This document shows, in pieces, positions 4,783-52,258 of a DNA stretch of 64,000 nucleotides. The notes below the pieces were generated by a model. It saw nothing but the letters and a program-made list of their open reading frames with translations, searched no databases and was not told the origin of the DNA. Position 1 is the first letter of the stretch, and each line of letters opens with the position of its first letter. Both the position numbers and the translations under genes were made by a program. Source of the stretch: Eledone cirrhosa. Lineage: Eukaryota. The stretch is from assembly GCA_964016885.1 (NCBI GenBank), contig OZ024743.1, positions 302,126,001 to 302,190,000 on the forward strand. The letters run 5' to 3'.

Positions 4783-7700
4783 CTACAGGCCTATATTTAG
4801 AGCGGTCCCGTTCACTCGGACCATTCTCGCTACATTGACCCACCTTTCAGCAAACTTGCTAGAAAGCAGAACTTGCCTCTCCACCCTGATTTTCCTCTTC
4901 AAGTGAAACTTGAATAAGTTAGTTAGGGATTCGCCGAAGAGGAAAGTGTCTGTCGTTAACCCTTTCAACCTTTTCCACCACACAATCTCTTTCGCCATGG
5001 CCACCAGGCAGATGAAAACCGCCTGCCCTTCCCCCTCGAAGGAAGACGGCGAGATCCTCTGCACAATGGACTCAGTCGAGAACCGGATCAGTCCTATACG
5101 CGACAGCAACTGTTCGACATAGCTCCACAAGTCAGCAATGCTCGGGCACTGAACGAGTGCGTGCACGGCGGTTTCGTCGCTCTGCGCGCATCTCGGACAG
5201 GCTGTCCTGACGGCACTTCTTGTAGAGCTATCTCGAACCGCAAACTCCCCGGTAGCACTGCCGGGCCAGGGATTTTTGGAAGTTATCCATAGGCCCTGGG
5301 CTGAAAGTTCTCCGTTAGAGCGCAAATGGCTGATCTTCTTCGACGCCCAGAATCTCTCCGAGAATGTCGTCGCTCTTCCCATACGCTAGTCCTCTATAGA
5401 ACGCGGGAGTGGGTGTTCCACCGATACTGGTGCCTCGCTGGCAGAGGGTGGTGAGCGCCTGGAGACATTCCAGTTTCCAAGCGCTATCCCTCGGTCTTTT
5501 CCTGACCCAGGACTGCACCTCCGTCAAGGAGACGAGCTGTGGGAAAACGTGCCGGGCGAACGGCGACCACACCTGTTCACCGTCAAGGAAGCACCAGAGG
5601 TTCCGCAGCTTCATGAGCCATGGCATGCCCAGTCCTCCACGCAACGGGTGTTGACAGCAGATGGATCGTTTGACCATGGGAGCGCGTCTCTTCCACAAAA
5701 AGCTGTAATGAAGGCGCTTCATTTTGGTGAGAGTTGGGCCAGGGAAAGAGATGATGGTGAGGCGGTAGGAGATGACGGATGCGATGTACGTATTCGCCAC
5801 ATCCGCCCGGCCTTTCGGGGACAGCTTGTCTCGGCTCATTTCTGGTTGAGGGAGGCCACCTTGCTCGTCACCTCGTTCCAGTTTTTCTCCATCTGGGGGT
5901 CCGGTCCGAACCAGACCCCGAGCAATTTAACCGGTCCGTCCGACCAACGCCCCACGACGCTGTCGGACGGCATGGACTTGACTATCCAGGTGCCGAGTTG
6001 CAAGCCACCGATTTTTCCTGGTTTATCTTTGCTCCTGTCATCGCTTCGTATTTCTTGAGAGCGGTGCTGAGCATCTGGATGTGTCTGGTGCACGTCAATA
6101 CCACGGTGAAGTCGTCGGCGTATGCCGACTCGGATTTCCCGCATCCATCCTAGTTCGAGTGGGACTCCCTCATTGGCCCCAGTTTGTGTAGTAACGGCTC
6201 GAGAGCTTATACGTACAAGAGGGACGAGAGGAGACAACTGTGGCGGTCCGAGCGCATGATGCTGAACGGCTGCGACAGGTGACCGTTCTTCCTCACAGCC
6301 GAGCAGATGTCGCTGTACAGCGCAGCGATCCAACCCCTGAAAACGGGCCCGTAAGCGACTGCCTCGAGGACCGCCGCCATTGTGCCGATTGTCGACCCTA
6401 TCAAATGCTTTGGATTGATCAAATTTGATAAGGCCCCACCCGTGCCAGGTTCCTTAACCACCCTCTCTACGATGTATAGCATGAGGTGGAGGTCGTCCTG
6501 CATGGATCTGTCCGGAATAGCGCATGTCTGCGCCTCTCCCACCAGACCCTTGGCGACAAGTGCCAAACTCGTTCCTAAAATCTTGAACTCGGCGTTTAGC
6601 AGGGTTATAGGCCTGAAGTTATCGATAACAACACCCTTGATCGGATCTTTTCTCTGCAGCGCCACCGCTTCTTGGCTCACACAACTGGGAAAGCTCCCGT
6701 TCTGCTGTCAGTTGCAGTAGACGGCTGCCAAGAGGTCACCGAACAAGTCTGGCATAAATGCATAAAGCTCATAGGGCAGACCATCCAAAACTGGCGATTT
6801 ACCCCTCGTGCAATTAGCCATCGCTTCCCGTATTTCACCGGCTGTTATTGGCTTTGCGCAACACTGCACTGCGATCGTCGAGAGCCGACGCAGTCCGTCG
6901 ATGTATGCACTGAAGTCCATACCCCGATCCGGCCCGCCGCTGTTCCCAAACATTTCAGCAATGTGCTGCTGAAAAACCTCACAAACGTGCTCGTCTTCGA
7001 GCAACACGCGCCCGTTTTGGTCAGATGAAGGCTGAATTGTGGTTTTGTTGCCACGTCGCGCCTCTAGCACGCAGGTCCATTGGACGGCTTTCTTCCCCTC
7101 GTGTTTCAGAGCACGCGCTCTAGCTCGGTCAACGCATCCTTCGTGTTTTGCGTTGAGTAATTGGTCGAGTGCCAATCTCGCCAGTCCTAAAGGCCTCTTC
7201 TAGCTTTCTGACTAGCTCTCCCTATACTCTATTTTTCTCTATCGCTACTCCTTTGCTAAACCTAATCGACTCTACTTTAATTGCCCTTTTCAGGGCAAAC
7301 TCCCACCTGTCGTTGATGACCGCTCCCGTCAACGTCCGCTTAACTAATATGCTAATTCGGTCTCTGTAGGCTTTGCGCGCGGGGAATGATGCGTTCAGCT
7401 TCCAATAACCAGGTCCTTGTCTCTGAAATCTGTCTATGTCGATCTCACATATCAAAGATGTGTGGTCTGTGTAATCGACTATTTTAAATTGTGGACAACC
7501 TATACTAGCCTTATCTAGTTCCCTGCAGAATAACCTATCTAGATACGATCTGGATGACGCGATGCGGTTTGTCCATGTCCACATTGGCACATTCGGGTGA
7601 TCCAGTCGATACCTGTCAGACAGTTCAAAATGTCTGAGTAGATTGGTGAGGCTCTTGCACCCTCCTCGCCTATCCACTAGCCCCACACAATCGCGGCTTG

Positions 7701-8139
7701 CATCCATTATACCGTTCCAGTCGCCCACTAATACTAAAGAGCGGGTCGTTCCAAGAAAGGTCTCTAGACGTCTGAACAAATCTGGCCGTCCTGCCCCAAT
7801 TGGGGCGTAGACGGATAGTAGCCTGAAAGCATTGCCTTCGCTGCCGGTCACGTCCAGAACCACCGGCTTACCAGCTGGATCCAGGAAGATGGCCCGTATG
7901 GCGAGATCCAAGCCTCTCCAAAAAAGGACGGCAACCCCTCCTCTCGATCCTGGACGGCTGGGAGATGCGTATACATCGTAGCCGCCGGAGATCCGTGTGA
8001 AGGCTCGTGCTTCGGATTCTGGTCTCGTTGATGGCCACCACATCTATGTTTAGTGACCTGAGGTCGTTGAGCACATTACCCTGCTTTCAAGATGACACCA
8101 GGCCACGTGCATTTATACTGCCTATCTAAGTACGGCCAT
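4783..8139 (-). pseudogene. ORF2: APE endonuclease, RT and C-terminal CCHC zinc finger, multiple frameshifts
   Basis: LVGDWN, SYLDRLF, YTDH, GPGYWKLN, NFRPITLLNAEFKIL, GGLGMP, CPRCAQSDETAVHALVQCP. Confidence 0.92.
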
Positions 8140-14704: not shown

Positions 14705-15170
<466 letters not shown>

Positions 15171-18774: not shown

Positions 18775-18816
18775 TTTATTCTGACGACTGAAGACAGAAA
18801 CCACTGGTAAATGAAA
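18775..18816 (+). ncRNA. Hammerhead-like motif (type I, short stem II)
   Basis: TTTATT-CTGACGA-CTGAAGACA-GAAACC-ACT-GGTA-AATGAA: stems I and III pair, GUA site. Confidence 0.5.
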
Positions 18817-29676: not shown

Positions 29677-30293
29677 CATGTATGTATATATATACATACT
29701 ACTGTACGTCTGTATATATATATATATATGTGTGCATGTATGTATATATATACATACTATTGTACGTCTGTATACACATTTAAGTATCAGCCGTACTAAG
29801 ATTGAGAAATGAAATTCCGTTTGATTCTTTTCCATTGATCGTTTTCGTTTCGATGCGCGCGGCCGATTAACTCACTCGATATGCAAATTAGTCTGCTCGG
29901 TTGTTAATATGCATGAGGAAAGTATATACTTTCAAACGTTCAATCATCTGGCAGGAAGGTATACGATGCTGACGATAGCTAATAAGCTTGAAACTAGTAC
30001 ATCCTTTATGTGTCAGTGTTGGACAAAGGGGCGGCGATGGTTGCCTGAACAATGTACGGCGTAGTTCGGGGTGTTTATTTGTTTACAAACAACCAAACCG
30101 AACATTATAATAAATGTTCGTAAACCATACGTACATATATATATATATATGTGTGCGCATGTATATATATATATATATACCTACTACTGTACGTCTCTGT
30201 ACATATATGTATGTACGTATGCATACATACTTACATTTAAGTATCAGCCGTACTAAGAGTGAGAAATGAATTTCGTTTCATTCTTTTCCATTC

Positions 30294-30869: not shown

Positions 30870-30871
30870 TT

Positions 30872-31066
30872 ATAGGAACCAGTAAGACCCCGACAGCTGA
30901 GCTCAAGCCGTTTCGACGGCTAATTCTGGACTGAATTAGCCGTCGAAACGGCTTGAGCTCAGCTGTCGGGGTCTTACTGGTTCCTATTACCCACTCTACT
31001 ACCTCAAGTATTGAGTACTTTGGTGCGTTATGGTCCACCTGGTTCCTTACCACATTTCCTTCGTTA
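30872..31066 (+). mobile_element. PLE pseudo-LTR tail fragment with fold-back in (TA)n (further pieces at 31383-31464, 32190-32248 and 32304-32439)
   Basis: Same sequence family as 15692-15866 and 36763-36900. Confidence 0.75.
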
Positions 31067-31070
31067 TGTA

Positions 31071-31287
<217 letters not shown>

Positions 31288-31461
31288 ATATATATATATA
31301 TATGTATATACATATATATAAGTTATATATATATGTATATATATGTATGTATATGTTATATATATATATATATATATATAGCAACCAGTAAGACCCCGAC
31401 AGCTGAGCTCAAGCCGTTTCGACGGTTATGGTCCACCTGGTTCCTTACCACATTTCCTTCG

Positions 31462-31500
<39 letters not shown>

Positions 31501-31569: not shown

Positions 31570-32110
31570 ATAAAATATTAAACAAATAATGAATAAACAA
31601 TTCCTTATATTAAACAAAAAAAGTTCATTATTTAACGATCGTTTCTAGGATATATATGTGTTAGAGTTGGCATGCATATTCAACAGATCTATGTACAAAA
31701 TTATACAAAATTATACAAACTATCAAGATTAAATATACATACCAACACATATATACGCCGTCTTCAGAAATAATTTCTGAAGACGGCGTATATATGTGTT
31801 GGTATGTATATTTAATCTTGATAGTTTGTATAATTTTGTATAATTTTGTACATAGATCTGTTGAATATGCATGCCAACTCTAACACATATATATCCTAGA
31901 AACGATCGTTAAATAATGAACTTTTTTTGTTTAATATAAGGAATTGTTTATTCATTATTTGTTTAATATTTTATCTTGACTCTGTATACCGTTTATCTTT
32001 CACCGAAAGTGATTTTTCATTACATTTCTTCTTTCCATGATATCCGGAATACATTGAGTTCTTCATACGGATTGGACACTACCGTAAACTCTTGGTAGAT
32101 TTATCTACAT
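31570..32110 (+). mobile_element. About 200-bp-arm perfect palindrome (31570-31974) plus tail; hammerhead-containing, PLE-end-like
   Basis: Arms appear identical, centre near 31772; CTGAAGA at 31777 and GAAACGATCGTT at 31899. Confidence 0.7.
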
Positions 32111-32187: not shown

Positions 32188-33884
32188 GTATATTGAGAAC
32201 TTTGGTGCGTAATGGTCCATCTGGTTCCTTACCACATTTCCTTCGTTATAGTTATATATATATATATATATATAGATATATATATATATATATATGTAAT
32301 TCCCAGAATTAGCCGTCGAAACGGCTTGAGCTCATCCGTCGGGGTCTTACTTGTTCCTATTACCCACTCTACTACCCTAAGTATTGAGTACTTTGGTGCG
32401 TTATGGTCCACCTGGTTCCTTACCACATTTCCTTCGTTATAAATATATATATATATATATGTGTGTGTGGGCTGATAGTGATTGAATTAAGGAATTGCAG
32501 AAACCCAAGAAGCTTGATTTACCATCCTTCTAGCGGGTCCGGTGAGTTTTTTACATTCATTTAATTTATTGATTTATTGATATTTTATTTGAGTGACCTG
32601 AATCTTCCTGGTCGTTCTTTTTCGGCTGTACGGGTGATTTTAGGCATTATCTCTATGTGTTGGTAATTTAACGATGGTTATAGCTCTGATTTATACAAAT
32701 TATTGAGCCCTCTGCCACACATATCGGATATTGTTTATCGTTAATTCGTAAGGTGTTTTTCCGATTCTCGATTATTCTACTATATATATATATATATAAC
32801 TTTCTTCTATGTCACATGATTGTGCTGAGTTGCTCCACCCTTTGACGTGTTTTGTTTTTCTGTGTGTGTATATATCTCTGTCAGAGTATGTATCTATACA
32901 TCTGTCAGTGAAGCTTTGTGAGGTAGCGTGTTTAGTCGCTGTTTAATCGTGAAACTTGTATTATTCCATTTGCATTCCCATTTCTGTGCCAACTTCCTTT
33001 CAAAGTATTTTCCCATTATACGTCCTTTTGGCTGTATTACATTACAGACAAGCAAGCAAGCAATTACGGAGATTTCATAGTATATAGATAATGATGTTTA
33101 CAGAAAACTGGCGGTTCGATTACCTTTGTAACTGTGGTTAATCCTGATTTAAGTCGGGATGTATATGTCTATTTATCTATCTGTCTATCTATCTGGAAGA
33201 GTGACAAAACCATATTAAACAAATATTTATTACACCACGCATATTAAGTATATGTTATATATATCAACAAATATGTAAACATTTTTCTAAGCATTTTCGT
33301 TAGGCAGGTATTGAGGTGTAAATAATTTTCTATTTGTGATTATGATATAAGACGCAGTGAAGTGGTGTTGACATTTTGCGTTCGGTCAAGCATAGGCTAT
33401 AACAGAGCATAGACCAAAGGTTCTCAACGGGGGATATGTGCAGCCCGGGGGCGTTTTAGAACACTGGGGGGGGGGGGGGGGGGCGTTTCAAGCTGGGGAA
33501 GGGGGCGCTGTAAGGCTCTTTACTTTGGTAAGTTTTATAAGCGATATTTGTATGTTTTTGAGACAGCCAGTTTGAATGCATTTGAATGAGCATGCAGACA
33601 GCATAACTATAGTTTGACCGCAGCTGTGTGCAGGTGTGCAGGCGTGTCTAGACATTAACTGTTAATTGAGATCCTAAAAATGGAAAAGCCCACAGTCACC
33701 TGGGTCAAGGACACTTTGAACGCAGCCAGTTATAAGCTTATCTTTCCTTCACCGATAACAATGTATTTCATGTCAGAAATTATTGACTCAACCGTAATGA
33801 GTTAACTAACACTATTTAGATCTATGTTATTTCCTATTGTATAAATAATATTACAAATAAAAAATAAAAAAAATAAAAACACAG

Positions 33885-41501: not shown

Positions 41502-42586
41502 ATTATCTATAAAAGGCAGATTTTTGTGTTTGTATGTATGTTTCAATTTTATACATTTACACAATTCCAAAAATATTGAATGAATAATTAAGCAGGATGT
41601 TGTCAAATATTCTACCTTGGGTCATGGGCGAACTTATTGGCTAAACAATGCCCCAATTACGGAAAAATCGATTTATTTCAACAATCGATGATTTCTCCTC
41701 TCTCATATTATATACGTTTGCTATATCTACTCCCTTCATCACCTCCCCTTAAAATTGCTACCTTCTCTTATAAGTGTTTGTGAAAAAGAGAAACATTGAA
41801 AAAAAACATATACACACATATATGTGGGTGCATACACACACATATATGTTTGTATGGTTACGATTGACGTCATAGAAACAGGAACGCGGGAATTTCAATC
41901 AATCAACGCATACACAGTTTGTTTTAGAAATAACAATAGCATATTATGATAAAGAGGGATCATTATCTATATAATGATAAAGAGGGAAAGAGAAACAAAT
42001 ATACACACTAAAAAACGGATATATGTGTGTGTGTTTGTATTAGCGCGTTCAGACTCCATTTCGAAGCTGACTTTCATTTACTAAACTGTAAGTTTTTCAA
42101 TCGGCCTTACACTTTCAAACTATATTTTTCTGTATAAGTAACTTTAACCCTTTATTTTCGACATAAAAATACACACATACATACAAAGACCTGTACAGTT
42201 TTTTTTTTTTTTTGGGGGGGGGGGGGGGGGGGCTTTCTTATCAATCTTTTTACATTCAATTATCAGCCTTATAGTTTTAAAGTCAATTTTTCTGTAGAAG
42301 TAACTTTAACCCTTTCTTTTCGACATAAAAATACACACATACATACAAATACCTGTAAACACATTTTTGAGGCCTTTCTTATCAATCTTTTTACATTCAA
42401 TTACCAGCCTTATACTTTCAAAGTCAAATTTTATGTTGAAGTAACTTTCACCCTTTATTTTTCGATACCCATTTACTTACTAACATTTGTATCACAACAA
42501 CAATAAGAATATTCATAAACAGACAGTAGAATTTAAAAGTCAATTTTTCTGTAGAAGTAACTTTCACCCTTTCTTTTGGACATAAA

Positions 42587-43330
42587 ATGCCACCTAAAAA
42601 GAGAAGTCGCCTCAGTCGACATACCGATTCAGCAGTTGCGCAAAAGGCTACTATAGCAAACGAGTCCTCTGAGGAAAATGCTTCAAGACTTTCACAGACA
42701 GCCTTATGTTCAGCAGAATGTCGAGCCGCTGAAAGTTTCCAACAGCGCACCGCACGCCTAGCCAAAATGGCTTCATACCAGGCTTCTCCCAGGGCTTCAG
42801 AGAGCCGTGAACAAAGGTCGAAACGCCTGGCTAGAAACGATGCGACTAATGCTGTTTCCAGGTCTTTGGAACGTTTAAAACAACGGACGGCTCTCCTTCC
42901 TACGAACGCTGCGGCTATGACTACTTCCATGGCTTCTGAAGATGCAGACGGGCGGTCCATTAGCATTGCAAATATTGCTTATGCTATTGCTGCCAGACCT
43001 TCCCACCAACCACACGACCAATGTTCTACGTTCAAGCGTAACAGTCGACGGCGAGAAGCTGCACGCGGTGTGACGAGCCCCAAGAGCCCTTACTGGCACC
43101 TACGGGCTTTCAAGTATGAGCAAAACGTTAATTACTCAATGCGCTCTGACATAAATATAGGCGAGATACGCTTCAATTGCCAATTCTGCAATGCTACAAA
43201 GTGGGCTGGGGAGCCACCTACAATGTGCTGTTTAAACGGTAAGGTCACCTTGCCCCCTCTTCCTGAACCGCCAGAGCCTTTGAAGGAACTACTGACTGGT
43301 TATACCTCAAGGTCAAAAAAAAAAACCTGA
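42587..43330 (+). pseudogene. Helitron RepHel N-terminal region
   Basis: ESxEQRxxRL-type repeats; NIGEIRFNCQFCNATKWAGEPPTMCCLNGKVTLPPLPEPPEPLKELL. Confidence 0.82.
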
Positions 43331-43349
43331 TCCCCCCAATAAAAAAACG

Positions 43350-44420
43350 ATCCTGGGAGTACTGGAAACACTTTTGTAACGAATTTGATTCTCGCTAAGA
43401 TTCGTCAGGAGAAAAAAATTGCGTTGTCCCTTGCATCGTCCGGGACCGCTGCTACTTTGCTGCCGGGAGGCAGGACAGCACATTCAACCTTTAAACTCCC
43501 TTTGGATTTAGTAAAAACTGAGACACCAACATGCAATATCAGCAAGAGTTCACACAAAGCTATGGTTCTCAAAATATGTTGCCTCATTGTTTGGGATGAG
43601 TGCACAATGGAACACAAGGGTGCCCTTGATGCATTGGACAAGGCCCGGAAAGACATTAGGGATTCTACGGCTCCTATCGGTGGCGTAACCCTTCTGCTAT
43701 CAGGGGATTTTCGGAAAAAGCTGCCTGTCATCCCCAAATGGACAATAACTGATGAAGTGCGTGCCTGTCTTAAGTCGTCCATATTGTGGCTCCAGGTGAA
43801 TAGTTTGTACCTGAGCACAAATATGCGTGCTCATTTGCATGGTGACAACATGTCTGCAGCACAGAACATTTTAGCACTTGGTGAGGGCAAGATCCCTGCG
43901 GATGACAAGGGCGGCATAGCAATCGATACCCTGTGCAACATTGTGGGCAGCCCTTCTCACCTTTGGGAAGCAGTTTTTCATAATGTCTCATCTAACTTTA
44001 AAAACCTCGATTGGCTCAGCGAAAGAGCCATCCTTGCTCCGAAAAATACCATGGTTAATTTTATTAACGAGCAGCTGATTGAGAAGATTCCCGGTAAAGA
44101 GCACATCTTCAAATCAGACTCCGACGATATCGTTAATTATCCGGTTGAGTTATTAAATCTCTTTGAGCCCCCAAGGCTCCCATCTCACATTATTAAGCTT
44201 AGGGTTAGCTGTCCCATTATGCTAATAAGGAACTTGCGTCCACCAAAGCAGTGCAACGGTACTCGCATGTCGTCAAGTCACTGACACCCACTTGATTGAG
44301 GCCATCATTGTAACGGGGTGGGGGAAGAGGGGAGAATGTTTTCATTTCAAGGATGAACCTTTTCCCCTCGGCGTAAGATATCCCGCTCGATTTCCGGTGA
44401 TCACAATTCCCGGTCTACTA
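43350..44420 (+). pseudogene. Helitron PIF1-family helicase, disrupted
   Basis: PGSTGNTF (degenerate Walker A), ASSGTAATLLPGGRTAHS, WDECTM, LLSGDFRKKLPV, ERAILAPKN, MLIRNL..CNGTR. Confidence 0.9.
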
Positions 44421-44860: not shown

Positions 44861-45060
44861 TAACGAAAGAAGTGCCGTAAGGGACCAGGTGGACCATAAC
44901 GCACCAGAGTACTCGGTATTTCGGGTAGTAGAGTGGATAATAGGAAAATAGTCAGAAACCCGACAGCAGAGCTCAAGGCGTTTCGACAGATTTTTCCGTC
45001 CAGAAATAGCTGTCAAAATGGCTTGAGCTCTGACGTCGAGGTTCTGACTATTTTCCTATT
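44861..45060 (-). mobile_element. PLE pseudo-LTR tail fragment (relative of element A) with fold-back
   Basis: Similar to 36763-36900; inverted repeat 44939-45060. Confidence 0.7.
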
Positions 45061-45113
45061 ATATATATATACACACACATATATATATATATATATAGTT
45101 TTAATATAGATGA

Positions 45114-45162
45114 GATTCTACAGGACTAGAACTGTTTCATTCATTAGAAATCATCAGGAATC
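45114..45162 (-). ncRNA. Type I hammerhead ribozyme in fold-back 45098-45217
   Basis: GATTC-CTGATGA-T-TTC-TAAT-GAA-T-GAA-ACAG-TTCTAGTC-CTGT-A-GAATC. Confidence 0.8.
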
Positions 45163-45284
45163 ATTTCTAATGAATGAAACAGTTCTAGTCCTGTAGAATC
45201 TCATCTATATTAAAACTGTTATACTCTGCTATGTATTGAGTACCTTACTTACTGTGGTTACCTCCGATTCAACCCGGAATAACG

Positions 45285-45316
<32 letters not shown>

Positions 45317-45436
45317 TATAGACATAGAATATTCGAAAATATTCTGTATGTTTATAATAAACATTTTGAAGACCTAATCGCTATGGAATAGAATACGTCA
45401 CGTATTACAATTAGATTCTCGATAAAAGCAAGGGAA

Positions 45437-45479
45437 GTAATCTACGCGTTTCATTCTTATTAGAAATCTTCAGGACTAC
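45437..45479 (-). ncRNA. Type I hammerhead ribozyme (first of 13 minus-strand copies, every 310 bp)
   Basis: GTAGTC-CTGAAGA-T-TTCT-AATA-AGAA-T-GAA-ACGCGT-A-GATTAC, enclosed by a 16-bp helix ATTCTCGATAAAAGCA/TGCTTTTATCGAGAAT. Confidence 0.85.
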
Positions 45480-48400
45480 ATATCCAGTGCTTTTATCGAG
45501 AATGACACAGCTAGAGACTTATAGAATACTTAGCTGTGTACATGAACTGGTTTGAAAGAGCGGTTGCCGGTCCGGCAGAAATTAGAAATTGGAATAAATG
45601 CTCTGAAATAGCGATATATATGTGAATATAGACATAGAATATTCGAAAATATTCTGTATGTTTATAATAAACATTTTGAAGACCTAATCGCTATAGAATA
45701 GAATACGTCACGTATTACAATTAGATTCTCGATAAAAGCAAGGGAAGTAATCTACGCGTTTCATTCTTATTAGAAATCTTCAGGACTACATATCCAGTGC
45801 TTTTATCGAGAATGACACAGCTAGAGACTTATAGAATACTTAGCTGTGTACATGAACTGGTTTGAAAGAGCGGTTGCCGGTCCGGCAGAAATTAGAAATT
45901 GGAATAAATGCTCTGAAATAGCGATATATATGTGAATATAGACATAGAATATTCGAAAATATTCTGTATGTTTATAATAAACATTTTGAAGACCTAATCG
46001 CTATAGAATAGAATACGTCACGTATTACAATTAGATTCTCGATAAAAGCAAGGGAAGTAATCTACGCGTTTCATTCTTATTAGAAATCTTCAGGACTACA
46101 TATCCAGTGCTTTTATCGAGAATGACACAGCTAGAGACTTATAGAATACTTAGCTGTGTACATGAACTGGTTTGAAAGAGCGGTTGCCGGTCCGGCAGAA
46201 ATTAGAAATTGGAATAAATGCTCTGAAATAGCGATATATATGTGAATATAGACATAGAATATTCGAAAATATTCTGTATGTTTATAATAAACATTTTGAA
46301 GACCTAATCGCTATAGAATAGAATACGTCACGTATTACAATTAGATTCTCGATAAAAGCAAGGGAAGTAATCTACGCGTTTCATTCTTATTAGAAATCTT
46401 CAGGACTACATATCCAGTGCTTTTATCGAGAATGACACAGCTAGAGACTTATAGAATACTTAGCTGTGTACATGAACTGGTTTGAAAGAGCGGTTGCCGG
46501 TCCGGCAGAAATTAGAAATTGGAATAAATGCTCTGAAATAGCGATATATATGTGAATATAGACATAGAATATTCGAAAATATTCTGTATGTTTATAATAA
46601 ACATTTTGAAGACCTAATCGCTATAGAATAGAATACGTCACGTATTACAATTAGATTCTCGATAAAAGCAAGGGAAGTAATCTACGCGTTTCATTCTTAT
46701 TAGAAATCTTCAGGACTACATATCCAGTGCTTTTATCGAGAATGACACAGCTAGAGACTTATAGAATACTTAGCTGTGTACATGAACTGGTTTGAAAGAG
46801 CGGTTGCCGGTCCGGCAGAAATTAGAAATTGGAATAAATGCTCTGAAATAGCGATATATATGTGAATATAGACATAGAATATTCGAAAATATTCTGTATG
46901 TTTATAATAAACATTTTGAAGACCTAATCGCTATAGAATAGAATACGTCACGTATTACAATTAGATTCTCGATAAAAGCAAGGGAAGTAATCTACGCGTT
47001 TCATTCTTATTAGAAATCTTCAGGACTACATATCCAGTGCTTTTATCGAGAATGACACAGCTAGAGACTTATAGAATACTTAGCTGTGTACATGAACTGG
47101 TTTGAAAGAGCGGTTGCCGGTCCGGCAGAAATTAGAAATTGGAATAAATGCTCTGAAATAGCGATATATATGTGAATATAGACATAGAATATTCGAAAAT
47201 ATTCTGTATGTTTATAATAAACATTTTGAAGACCTAATCGCTATAGAATAGAATACGTCACGTATTACAATTAGATTCTCGATAAAAGCAAGGGAAGTAA
47301 TCTACGCGTTTCATTCTTATTAGAAATCTTCAGGACTACATATCCAGTGCTTTTATCGAGAATGACACAGCTAGAGACTTATAGAATACTTAGCTGTGTA
47401 CATGAACTGGTTTGAAAGAGCGGTTGCCGGTCCGGCAGAAATTAGAAATTGGAATAAATGCTCTGAAATAGCGATATATATGTGAATATAGACATAGAAT
47501 ATTCGAAAATATTCTGTATGTTTATAATAAACATTTTGAAGACCTAATCGCTATAGAATAGAATACGTCACGTATTACAATTAGATTCTCGATAAAAGCA
47601 AGGGAAGTAATCTACGCGTTTCATTCTTATTAGAAATCTTCAGGACTACATATCCAGTGCTTTTATCGAGAATGACACAGCTAGAGACTTATAGAATACT
47701 TAGCTGTGTACATGAACTGGTTTGAAAGAGCGGTTGCCGGTCCGGCAGAAATTAGAAATTGGAATAAATGCTCTGAAATAGCGATATATATGTGAATATA
47801 GACATAGAATATTCGAAAATATTCTGTATGTTTATAATAAACATTTTGAAGACCTAATCGCTATAGAATAGAATACGTCACGTATTACAATTAGATTCTC
47901 GATAAAAGCAAGGGAAGTAATCTACGCGTTTCATTCTTATTAGAAATCTTCAGGACTACATATCCAGTGCTTTTATCGAGAATGACACAGCTAGAGACTT
48001 ATAGAATACTTAGCTGTGTACATGAACTGGTTTGAAAGAGCGGTTGCCGGTCCGGCAGAAATTAGAAATTGGAATAAATGCTCTGAAATAGCGATATATA
48101 TGTGAATATAGACATAGAATATTCGAAAATATTCTGTATGTTTATAATAAACATTTTGAAGACCTAATCGCTATAGAATAGAATACGTCACGTATTACAA
48201 TTAGATTCTCGATAAAAGCAAGGGAAGTAATCTACGCGTTTCATTCTTATTAGAAATCTTCAGGACTACATATCCAGTGCTTTTATCGAGAATGACACAG
48301 CTAGAGACTTATAGAATACTTAGCTGTGTACATGAACTGGTTTGAAAGAGCGGTTGCCGGTCCGGCAGAAATTAGAAATTGGAATAAATGCTCTGAAATA

Positions 48401-49387
48401 GCGATATATATGTGAATATAGACATAGAATATTCGAAAATATTCTGTATGTTTATAATAAACATTTTGAAGACCTAATCGCTATAGAATAGAATACGTCA
48501 CGTATTACAATTAGATTCTCGATAAAAGCAAGGGAAGTAATCTACGCGTTTCATTCTTATTAGAAATCTTCAGGACTACATATCCAGTGCTTTTATCGAG
48601 AATGACACAGCTAGAGACTTATAGAATACTTAGCTGTGTACATGAACTGGTTTGAAAGAGCGGTTGCCGGTCCGGCAGAAATTAGAAATTGGAATAAATG
48701 CTCTGAAATAGCGATATATATGTGAATATAGACATAGAATATTCGAAAATATTCTGTATGTTTATAATAAACATTTTGAAGACCTAATCGCTATAGAATA
48801 GAATACGTCACGTATTACAATTAGATTCTCGATAAAAGCAAGGGAAGTAATCTACGCGTTTCATTCTTATTAGAAATCTTCAGGACTACATATCCAGTGC
48901 TTTTATCGAGAATGACACAGCTAGAGACTTATAGAATACTTAGCTGTGTACATGAACTGGTTTGAAAGAGCGGTTGCCGGTCCGGCAGAAATTAGAAATT
49001 GGAATAAATGCTCTGAAATAGCGATATATATGTGAATATAGACATAGAATATTCGAAAATATTCTGTATGTTTATAATAAACATTTTGAAGACCTAATCG
49101 CTATAGAATAGAATACGTCACGTATTACAATTAGATTCTCGATAAAAGCAAGGGAAGTAATCTACGCGTTTCATTCTTATTAGAAATCTTCAGGACTACA
49201 TATCCAGTGCTTTTATCGAGAATGACACAGCTAGAGACTTATAGAATACTTAGCTGTGTACATGAACTGGTTTGAAAGAGCGGTTGCCGGTCCGGCAGAA
49301 ATTAGAAATTGGAATAAATGCTCATGTACACAGCTAAGTATTCTATAAGTCTCTAGCTGTGTCATTCTCGATAAAAGCACTGGATAT

Positions 49388-49430
49388 GTAGTCCTGAAGA
49401 TTTCTAATAAGAATGAAACGCGTAGATTAC
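49388..49430 (+). ncRNA. Type I hammerhead ribozyme (first of 4 plus-strand copies; also 49698, 50008 and 50318)
   Basis: Same motif, read directly on the plus strand. Confidence 0.85.
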
Positions 49431-50513
49431 TTCCCTTGCTTTTATCGAGAATCTAATTGTAATACGTGACGTATTCTATTCTATAGCGATTAGGTCTTCA
49501 AAATGTTTATTATAAACATACAGAATATTTTCGAATATTCTATGTCTATATTCACATATATATCGCTATTTCAGAGCATTTATTCCAATTTCTAATTTCT
49601 GCCGGACCGGCAACCGCTCTTTCAAACCAGTTCATGTACACAGCTAAGTATTCTATAAGTCTCTAGCTGTGTCATTCTCGATAAAAGCACTGGATATGTA
49701 GTCCTGAAGATTTCTAATAAGAATGAAACGCGTAGATTACTTCCCTTGCTTTTATCGAGAATCTAATTGTAATACGTGACGTATTCTATTCTATAGCGAT
49801 TAGGTCTTCAAAATGTTTATTATAAACATACAGAATATTTTCGAATATTCTATGTCTATATTCACATATATATCGCTATTTCAGAGCATTTATTCCAATT
49901 TCTAATTTCTGCCGGACCGGCAACCGCTCTTTCAAACCAGTTCATGTACACAGCTAAGTATTCTATAAGTCTCTAGCTGTGTCATTCTCGATAAAAGCAC
50001 TGGATATGTAGTCCTGAAGATTTCTAATAAGAATGAAACGCGTAGATTACTTCCCTTGCTTTTATCGAGAATCTAATTGTAATACGTGACGTATTCTATT
50101 CTATAGCGATTAGGTCTTCAAAATGTTTATTATAAACATACAGAATATTTTCGAATATTCTATGTCTATATTCACATATATATCGCTATTTCAGAGCATT
50201 TATTCCAATTTCTAATTTCTGCCGGACCGGCAACCGCTCTTTCAAACCAGTTCATGTACACAGCTAAGTATTCTATAAGTCTCTAGCTGTGTCATTCTCG
50301 ATAAAAGCACTGGATATGTAGTCCTGAAGATTTCTAATAAGAATGAAACGCGTAGATTACTTCCCTTGCTTTTATCGAGAATCTAATTGTAATACGTGAC
50401 GTATTCTATTCTATAGCGGTTAGGTCTTCAAAATGTTTATTATAAACATACAGAATATTTTCGAATATTCTATGTCTATATTCACATATATATCGCTATT
50501 TCAGAGCATTTAT

Positions 50514-50584
<71 letters not shown>

Positions 50585-50607
50585 TACACTCACACAAACA
50601 CACAAAC

Positions 50608-50676
<69 letters not shown>

Positions 50677-51164
50677 TATTGTTACATAAACACATATTAC
50701 TTCCATACACATGAATAAACATGCATGCGCCTTTCCGAATGTCTGTACATAACAGAGCTTACATCTATATACACATTAACATAGATATATACCGAAGCAC
50801 ATATGTACCTACAAATACTAGTACACATGCAATTAGATCGATGAATCCGTATAGCCGTCTTCGAATCAAATGTCAACTATAAATATATTTTCATATAATC
50901 ATAGTTATGAATAACAATAAATAGACTACAATATATCTAAATTTGTTTATTCATACTTACATATAGGCAAACATACGCTAAATACAATGAATTATCTATA
51001 CATATATTCCTATTTTTGCCCATATTATATGTTATAGGATTCATATACATAAATATGTAGATAATATGTGAGTAAATAAACAATAATAAAGAGGAAAACA
51101 AAAATATATATACAGGCACGTAAAAACACACCCACACATACACACACACACATATATATATATA

Positions 51165-52258
51165 AATTAAGAATTGTTGCTCTGAAATAGCTATATATAT
51201 ATATGAATGTATATATAGTGTATTTTGCAACACACTGTATGCTTAATAGAAAGCATTTTGAAGACCTTAGGCTATAGTTTTAGAGTAGTGACAGACTCAC
51301 TTACTTTAATTTCAGCAAACAGGGGGAGATAAAGCTGACAAGGCCTTGTTTCTGCATTTATTGATGCTTATCAAATCCAACTTCTCCTCCCGTTTGCTTT
51401 GAACCTGGATGTTTTGGTTATTATAGAATTCTAGTAAATAATCAGGAACTGATTATACAGAGCGTTGCCGGTCAAGCAGAAATTAAAAATTAGAATTGTT
51501 GCTCTGAAATAGCTATATATATATGAATGTATATATAGTGTATTTTGCAACACACTGTATGCTTAATAAAAAGCATTTTGAAGACCTTATGCTATTGTTT
51601 TAGAGTAGTTGTAGACTCACTTACTTTAATTAAGAGCAGCAATTCTAATTTTTTATTTCTGCTTGACCGGCAACCTCTCTGTATAATCAGTTCCTGATTA
51701 TTTATTAGAATTCTATAAGAACCAAAACATCCAGGTTCTCAGAAAACGGGAGGAGTAGTTGGCTTTGATAAGCATCAATAAATACAGAAACAAGGCCTTG
51801 TCAGCTTTATCTCCCCCTGTTTGCTGAAATTAAAGTATGTGAGTCTGTCACTACTCTAAAACAATAGCATATGGTCTTCAAAATGTTTTTTTTTTTATTA
51901 AGCATACAGTGTGTTGCAAAATACACTATATATACATTCATATATATATAGCTATTTCAGAGCAACAAATCTAATTTTTAATTTCTGCTTGACCGGCAAC
52001 TGCTCTGTATAATCAGTTCCAGATTATTTACTACAATTCTATAAGAACCAAAACATCCAGGTTCTCAGCAAACGGGAGGAGTAGTTGGCTTTGAAAGCAT
52101 CAATAAATGCAGAAACAAGGCCCTGTCAGCTTTATCTCCCCCTGTTTGCTGAAATTAAAGTAAGTGAGTCTGTCACTACTCTAAAACAATAGCATAAGGT
52201 CTTCAAAATGCTTTTTATTAAGCATACAGTGTGTTGCAAAATACACTATATATACATT
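51165..52258. mobile_element. ~320-bp sister repeat (about 1.5 direct + 2 inverted units) with U3-A8 hammerhead
   Basis: Shares GTTGCCGGTC..GCAGAAATTA.AAATT.GAAT..GCTCTGAAATAGC and CATTTTGAAGACCT with the 310-bp unit; HHRs at 51333-51378 (-), 51761-51806 (+) and 52087-52131 (+). Confidence 0.8.

Follow-up and report, generated by a model that had tools for sequence, protein, structure and literature searches.

The repeat that we call family B, present as a single insertion at 51165..52258 of the window (the whole stretch of 64,000 nucleotides analysed here), is made up of non-coding tandem units, carries a type I hammerhead fold whose stems covary (core U3-A8) and shows insertion marks of the Penelope-like element (PLE) type. 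We consider it likely, with a probability of about 0.78, that family B is a non-autonomous PLE (non-LTR retrozyme) and that it shares with two related families, A and C, an ancestor from which they diverged by gradual change. This reading builds on the observed unit anatomy, covariation, subfamily order and insertion signature. The window is (TA)n-rich and lies on contig C4 of the genome, which was searched over 3.0 Gb in 1,796 contigs.

The insertion consists of an inverted and a direct arm, with both 3' ends fused to (TA)n. The inverted arm (51165..51631, minus strand) holds a 5'-truncated part unit, one unit and a tail, the direct arm (51633..52258, plus strand) holds two tandem units with a period of 326 and ends without a tail at the TA tract, and the inversion junction falls at the short palindrome TTAATTAA (51625..51633). 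This inverted-then-direct layout, given in the initial annotation as a direct-then-inverted architecture in (TA)n, was also seen at other loci. The PLE-type tail (51165..51204, minus strand; for the concept see PMC8557442 and PMC11167929) is a TA spacer plus ~27 nt, is confined to the inverted arm and contains in antisense the GCTCTGAAATAGC block that had been listed earlier as one of the conserved blocks. In the direct arm, the 5' conserved block (51951..52045, plus strand) combines tail sequence with the GACCGGCAAC block and is 80% identical to family A and 88% to family C. A long stem I (52064..52152, plus strand) surrounds the third hammerhead copy (52085-52132), and the twin hairpins of the 3' conserved block (52208..52247, plus strand; stems of 6 bp and 8 bp, GCAA forming the loop of the second) stop about 10-12 nt short of the tail-less 3' end. 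The family B unit is ~322 bp long, that of family A 310 bp.

None of the three family B hammerheads in the window is intact. Copy 1 (51333..51380, minus strand; U3 at 51374, A8 at 51369; the cut is predicted to fall between 51337 and 51336) has a C>A change at stem I position 2.2, giving a mismatch at 51376. Copy 2 (51759..51807, plus strand; U3 at 51765, A8 at 51770, extra A at 51786, G12 at 51787, predicted cut after C 51802) has a G>A change in stem II with a mismatch at 51784, and in copy 3 N7 is missing and stem III is mismatched at 52123. Because every copy carries a lesion, the motif written out in the initial annotation is a composite; it is nevertheless the commonest form among 41 motif rows extracted from the 30 best-hit family B loci, some of which overlap.

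Family A forms an inverted array of 13 + 3.9 units of 310 bp at 45304..50519, with its tail at 50494-50519. In a motif scan its hammerhead has a C3-G8 core and a U-U base of stem II, and its mean divergence of 0.7% implies that a helper was active recently. As had been claimed, families A and B share three blocks in the same order and on the same strand, and the scan places hammerhead-like motifs at the equivalent position and strand in both. BLAST of one unit against the other gave 78.7% identity over 155 bp (E 4e-29), and the consensus alignment proposed as a check put the similarity far above 200 dinucleotide shuffles, with the 5' block 80% (z 16.3) and the 3' block 76% identical (z 12.1). 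The scaffold pattern has 16,879 matches in the genome, 98 of the first 100 listed being A-type; excluding A-type letters leaves 1,388. When a fourth scaffold family was sought with a sequence pattern, all 31 matches proved to be A- or B-type at the motif. The family A array directly adjoins the end of a family D copy (45090-45285), a small fold-back insertion in (TA)n with a one-sided tail of about 65 nt; family D has 29 candidates in the genome, and its hammerhead-like core and stem II resemble those of family A.

For covariation, the first 100 non-A scaffold matches along contig C1 yielded 98 distinct units, from which 2 family A units, 14 without an extractable motif and 3 with large indels were removed, leaving 79. 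U3-A8 is present in 73 of these copies, and the core is highly conserved (A9 78, G12 76, A13 79, A14 78, A15.1 76, U16.1 76 and C17 79 of 79), the invariance of positions 4-6 being partly built in by the anchoring of the sample on TGA. The 79 copies have the features of a type I core, namely N3-UGA-N-N8-A, GAAA, U-H and a Watson-Crick 3-8 pair. The named hammerhead structure is paired in 94.5% of cells, compared with 34-51% for slid controls, and its covariation score was reached by none of 500 shuffles. Double-sided changes were found at 10.2-11.2 (44 CG/30 UA), 10.4-11.4 (37 CG/34 UA), 2.1-1.1 (63 UA/11 CG) and two palindrome pairs, and compensatory changes occur in stems I, II and III and in the outer stem; these counts represent roughly six inherited events, not independent sequences. 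All three helices thus covary in family B, albeit through few independent events, and neither the U3-A8 pair nor the stems, whose absence from the consensus had been named in advance as evidence against the initial annotation, are missing. The compensatory stem changes and the faster divergence of the module support the earlier proposal that the fold is selected while its sequence turns over.

Other measures were less favourable. The number of pairs changed on both sides did not exceed shuffles (91 and 315 of 500), and RNAalifold, run on the 79 family B copies, gave no useful consensus and favoured a competing helix over the hammerhead. Rfam searches of the window and of 49300-52250 returned no hammerhead for A or B, only chance matches of microsatellite type, so that the assignment in both families rests on the motif scan and the covariation. 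In the predicted monomer fold the 5' strand and positions U3 to G5 are trapped in pairing with stem III, and this structure lies 0.7-5.9 kcal/mol below the hammerhead. The competing helix is 92.6% paired in its own right, but it leaves unexplained why stems I and III show matching changes on their 3' sides. Stem III is a 12-nt palindrome that self-pairs at a computed energy of about -20 kcal/mol, and compensation (42 AU/25 GC) extends to a palindrome pair that could close only a 2-nt loop. Since this pair is too near to form inside a single hairpin and misfolding is predicted for the monomer, family B hammerheads would probably cut as dimers, as has been described for other metazoan hammerheads (PMC4209133, PMC7229834).

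The tree of family B, rooted by A and C, orders the stem II types as GTAC > GCAC > GCAT and contains wobble intermediates in stems I and III. The A before GAAA, which the initial annotation took for part of the hammerhead, turned out to be a subfamily insertion: G12 adjoins stem II directly in 70 of the 79 copies sampled along contig C1, whereas the extra A is found in 8, all of the window's subfamily, and one row has a shifted G. On the tree the extra A defines one clade (98/87) and is gone again in some descendants; its exact core occurs in 202 copies genome-wide.

Family C, discovered as an insertion at the end of a PLE and represented by 2,670 first-look candidates, has the same scaffold and combines the stem I of family B (TGGCT/AGCT) with the C3-G8 core and U-U base of family A. 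Consensus units were built from 21 units of A, 20 of old B, 15 of window-type B, 8 of GCC-type B and 9 of C. Old B and window B are 96-97% identical in their ends and 84% in the central module, C and B 86-89% and 64-71% (z 10-17), and A and C 75-77% and 54% (z 7.0). Between A and all types of B the values are 73-80% and 49-54%, and between A and window B 76-80% and 49% (z 1.0). The earlier description of the two ribozymes as unrelated therefore holds for the direct comparison, in which the A and B modules are at chance, but not once family C is considered, which bridges them. Given this bridge, the stepwise compensatory change and a module that has diverged further than the ends in every comparison, shallow or deep, saturation is the best reading of the low A-B identity. 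Judged from these alignments, the ribozymes of A and B are likely homologous, and A, B and C likely descend from one ancestor by gradual change. Strong variability of hammerheads within one genome is already known for PLEs (PMC4209133).

The insertion signature seen in the window was examined at 27 distinct loci, of which 18 have both ends resolved, 7 one end and 2 none. Arms read in ribozyme sense stop at the TA tract or 30-40 nt beyond it, and exactly one tail per insertion is present at all 18 loci of the first class. Family C shows the two end types as well, and from its non-TA spacer the tail length can be set at about 35 nt. The published signature of PLEs consists of partial tandems, a truncated copy in inverted orientation and a tail of 30-40 bp on one side (PMC8557442), and the tail reflects two reverse-transcription start sites in an Anolis element (PMC11167929). 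Family B bears the marks of a non-autonomous PLE in its inverted truncated arm, its one-sided 30-40-nt tail and its microsatellite target. Across 62 distinct copies drawn from A, B and C, the twin hairpins show 96.9% pairing and include three double-sided pairs, a covariation made up of only few events, between the families; family B has GCAA as its second loop and family A TTCG. The repeats often land in the (TA)n with which an older PLE-type insertion ends, so that nested clusters build up (for example L112:2385-2440, L299 and L312).

A search of the genome for GIY-YIG domains gave 10,596 first-look candidates, of which 150 were scored and 70 loci examined as possible autonomous helpers. Their translations contain an RT, a CX4CxxC linker motif (in agreement with the pattern CX2-5CxxC) and, at the C terminus, GIY-YIG; in Pfam, RVT_1 scored slightly under the cut-off and GIY-YIG over it. 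By domain content the candidate helpers are of Neptune/Nematis type, the two clades not being told apart, and like family B the elements with RT and C-terminal GIY-YIG end at (TA)n with optional tails. U3-A8 hammerhead-like cores occur in 29 of the 70 loci, in three families, and mostly C3-G8 ones in 11. At least three autonomous Neptune/Nematis-type families (L111-L140, L229-L268) combine U3-A8 hammerhead-like cores with a palindromic ACCGGT stem III, and in a fourth similar motif C replaces A13. The conserved blocks, which the initial annotation proposed to look for in PLE UTRs, were not seen there in the loci examined: by BLAST, none of the 70 GIY-YIG loci carries the A/B/C scaffold as its own UTR or a 3' end homologous to it, the matches being C or D insertions beside PLEs. 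Pfam found no PLE protein among 25 ORFs of the window.

An alternative to gradual change is a module swap, in which another hammerhead-bearing element supplied B (or A) with its core and stem II by template switching onto the shared scaffold. It would account for the chance-level similarity of the A and B modules (z 1.0; core window z 0.3), and possible sources exist, since one autonomous PLE family, at 19 of the 70 loci, has U3-A8 and a GCAT/ATGC stem II near-identical to window B, and family D has a core and stem II near those of A together with a different 3' end. But within B the GCAT stem arose from GTAC by way of GCAC, so that the resemblance to the PLE is of late date and likely a convergence; family C brings the outer stem I, stem I and linkers of the modules into register; and the faster divergence of the module holds within B too, where it needs no swap. 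We regard a swap as quite unlikely, but a short early conversion may have brought U3-A8 into the ancestor of B, or D-like letters into A. Gradual change from one ancestor remains our preferred explanation. What the conserved blocks do is a separate question. The initial annotation had offered two options, cis-signals for the mobilising RT or a promoter, and no result here favours the latter. The blocks hold the 3' end, the PLE-type tail and the two covarying hairpins, which makes them good candidates for RT cis-signals, and the hairpins, lying shortly ahead of the 3' end, speak for an RNA signal read by the RT rather than for a promoter. That the blocks are instead a DNA-level promoter, or that we are dealing with satellite or fold-back DNA of the ordinary kind that spread with no RNA stage, seems to us highly improbable: strict one-sided tails, fixed 3' ends with variable 5' truncation, and covarying hairpins with GCAA/UUCG tetraloops together speak for reverse transcription and for recognition at the RNA level. 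Some room for a promoter is left by the promoters described in PLE pseudo-LTRs (PMC6765202) and by the 5' block, which is 80% identical between A and B, has no detectable covariation and may act as sequence; promoter and RT-signal roles can also coexist.

The extra A raises the further possibility that the hammerhead of the window's subfamily is weakened or dead, the insertion lying between C11.1 and G12, and that these copies spread by RT signals alone. The insertion adjoins the catalytic G12 and was lost again in a descendant subfamily on the tree, and hammerhead mutants did not stop PLE insertion in vitro (PMC11167929). A ribozyme-less form of family B also exists, in which four tandem 163-bp units with the whole module deleted are followed by the tail and (TA)n (L330:1490-2115; C1:56078396-56078907). 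This form failed to spread, its 4 matches all falling at this sole locus, whereas the extra-A lineage was amplified to its 202 exact cores and on the tree yielded a subfamily with a further compensatory change in stem I. Other natural core insertions stay active (PMC3088659). We therefore hold a weak or dead hammerhead in the window's subfamily to be unlikely, if less so than a module swap. The hammerhead insertions named in the available part of PMC3088659 lie after A6, A9 and A13 and near C3, and an A between C11.1 and G12 is not among them; no insertion at this position was found in the literature searched, although an earlier description, for example in Lunse et al. on small PLE hammerhead variants, may exist.

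Under the reading of family B as a non-autonomous PLE, tandem copies would be transcribed and the predicted hammerheads would cut once per unit, probably as dimers. An autonomous PLE, probably of Neptune/Nematis type, may provide the RT/GIY-YIG protein that binds the resulting unit-length or circular RNA via the twin hairpins and the tail region. This protein would nick both (TA)n strands and begin cDNA at two sites separated by about 35 nt, and the product would have one direct arm, one arm that is inverted and truncated, and a single tail. Recognition by the protein would hold the ends of family B in sequence, and the 2-5 times faster divergence of the ribozyme module would follow from its being held in shape only. 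More tentatively, and with less than even confidence, A, B and C may together map a minimal signal for hijacking a PLE RT (the twin hairpins plus a 35-nt tail with two start sites) and may document how a functional hammerhead evolved within a single genome, including an exchange of C3-G8 and U3-A8, an A insertion between C11.1 and G12 that is active and not described before, and a ribozyme that is off as a monomer and on as a dimer.

Family B has the properties by which non-LTR retrozymes are recognised, i.e., a short non-coding tandem unit, one type I hammerhead in each and many dispersed copies. It resembles those of metazoans in its AT-rich tandem units of ~300 bp without an ORF and in having one type I hammerhead per unit and co-occurring PLEs (PMC7229834; bioRxiv 10.64898/2026.07.22.740005); it is unlike them in its U3-A8 core, 12-nt palindromic stem III and extra-A subfamily. 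Axolotl offers a parallel in two related retrozyme repeats, of 330 and 350 bp, whose hammerheads differ, stem II having a U-U base in one of them (PMC7229834). A likely PLE origin of non-LTR retrozymes is already in print (bioRxiv 10.64898/2026.07.22.740005), and the same source reports that 8 of 9 predicted Xenopus retrozymes gave no cleavage in vitro. Unlike in published retrozymes, homology to an autonomous pseudo-LTR was not found here among the 70 GIY-YIG loci. A one-sided tail in retrozymes was not found in the literature searched, nor did a term search of the accessible text of PMC7229834 and bioRxiv 10.64898/2026.07.22.740005 find the signature of an inverted arm with a one-sided tail. 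With Neptune/Nematis-type PLEs family B shares partial tandems, an inverted 5'-truncated copy, a one-ended 30-40-nt tail, an AT-rich target and, close to the 3' end, a hammerhead on the sense strand (PMC8557442, PMC11167929), but it has no ORF, and its hammerhead is full-size with a long stem I, whereas those of PLEs are minimal. Also, the first 3' end of family B lies at a TA tract matching the target, whereas the Anolis element starts at a site without homology to the cut DNA (PMC11167929).

The U3-A8 core stands for family B, but it is not new in nature: natural examples are known (PMC3088659), about 1,300 of them in Schistosoma PLE relics (PMC4209133), in addition to the autonomous PLE loci described above. 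The core pair exchange is the same as in these; what differs is that the C3-G8 sister shows it between homologous ribozymes. The element class and the U3-A8 core were already known. The published case for PLEs moving animal retrozymes consists of co-occurrence and terminal homology, whereas here the insertions themselves bear the PLE signature. The conserved blocks narrow the candidate signal to about 170 nt, testable with purified PLE protein, and the subfamily series provides natural variants for gauging the tolerance of the hammerhead core.

Several other repeats are present in the window. A further type I hammerhead-like motif (29960-30005, plus strand), with a C3-G8 core, U-U at the base of stem II, an AATA loop and a palindromic stem III, belongs to a different TA-flanked repeat, and a lone C3-G8 hammerhead-like motif found by the scan at 18781 (plus strand) has a weak stem II and may be due to chance. 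A TA-flanked fold-back repeat recurs at 30870-31070, 31380-31465, 32200-32380 and 44865-45065; it is also found inserted at the TA ends of several PLE loci and probably represents one more PLE-type family that is non-autonomous. An inverted repeat at 31570-31975 is near-perfect, with arms of about 200 bp, and a related stretch follows the PLE end in L249. Pfam matches of ORF pieces to STPR and PIF1 helicase (42530-44284, plus strand) suggest a Helitron-type fragment, and matches to an endonuclease/exonuclease/phosphatase domain and weakly to zf-RVT (4783-8043, minus strand) a decayed LINE. Two inverted tRNA-like Rfam matches (14923-15065; 32.9 and 31.8 bits) are possibly the head of a fold-back SINE.
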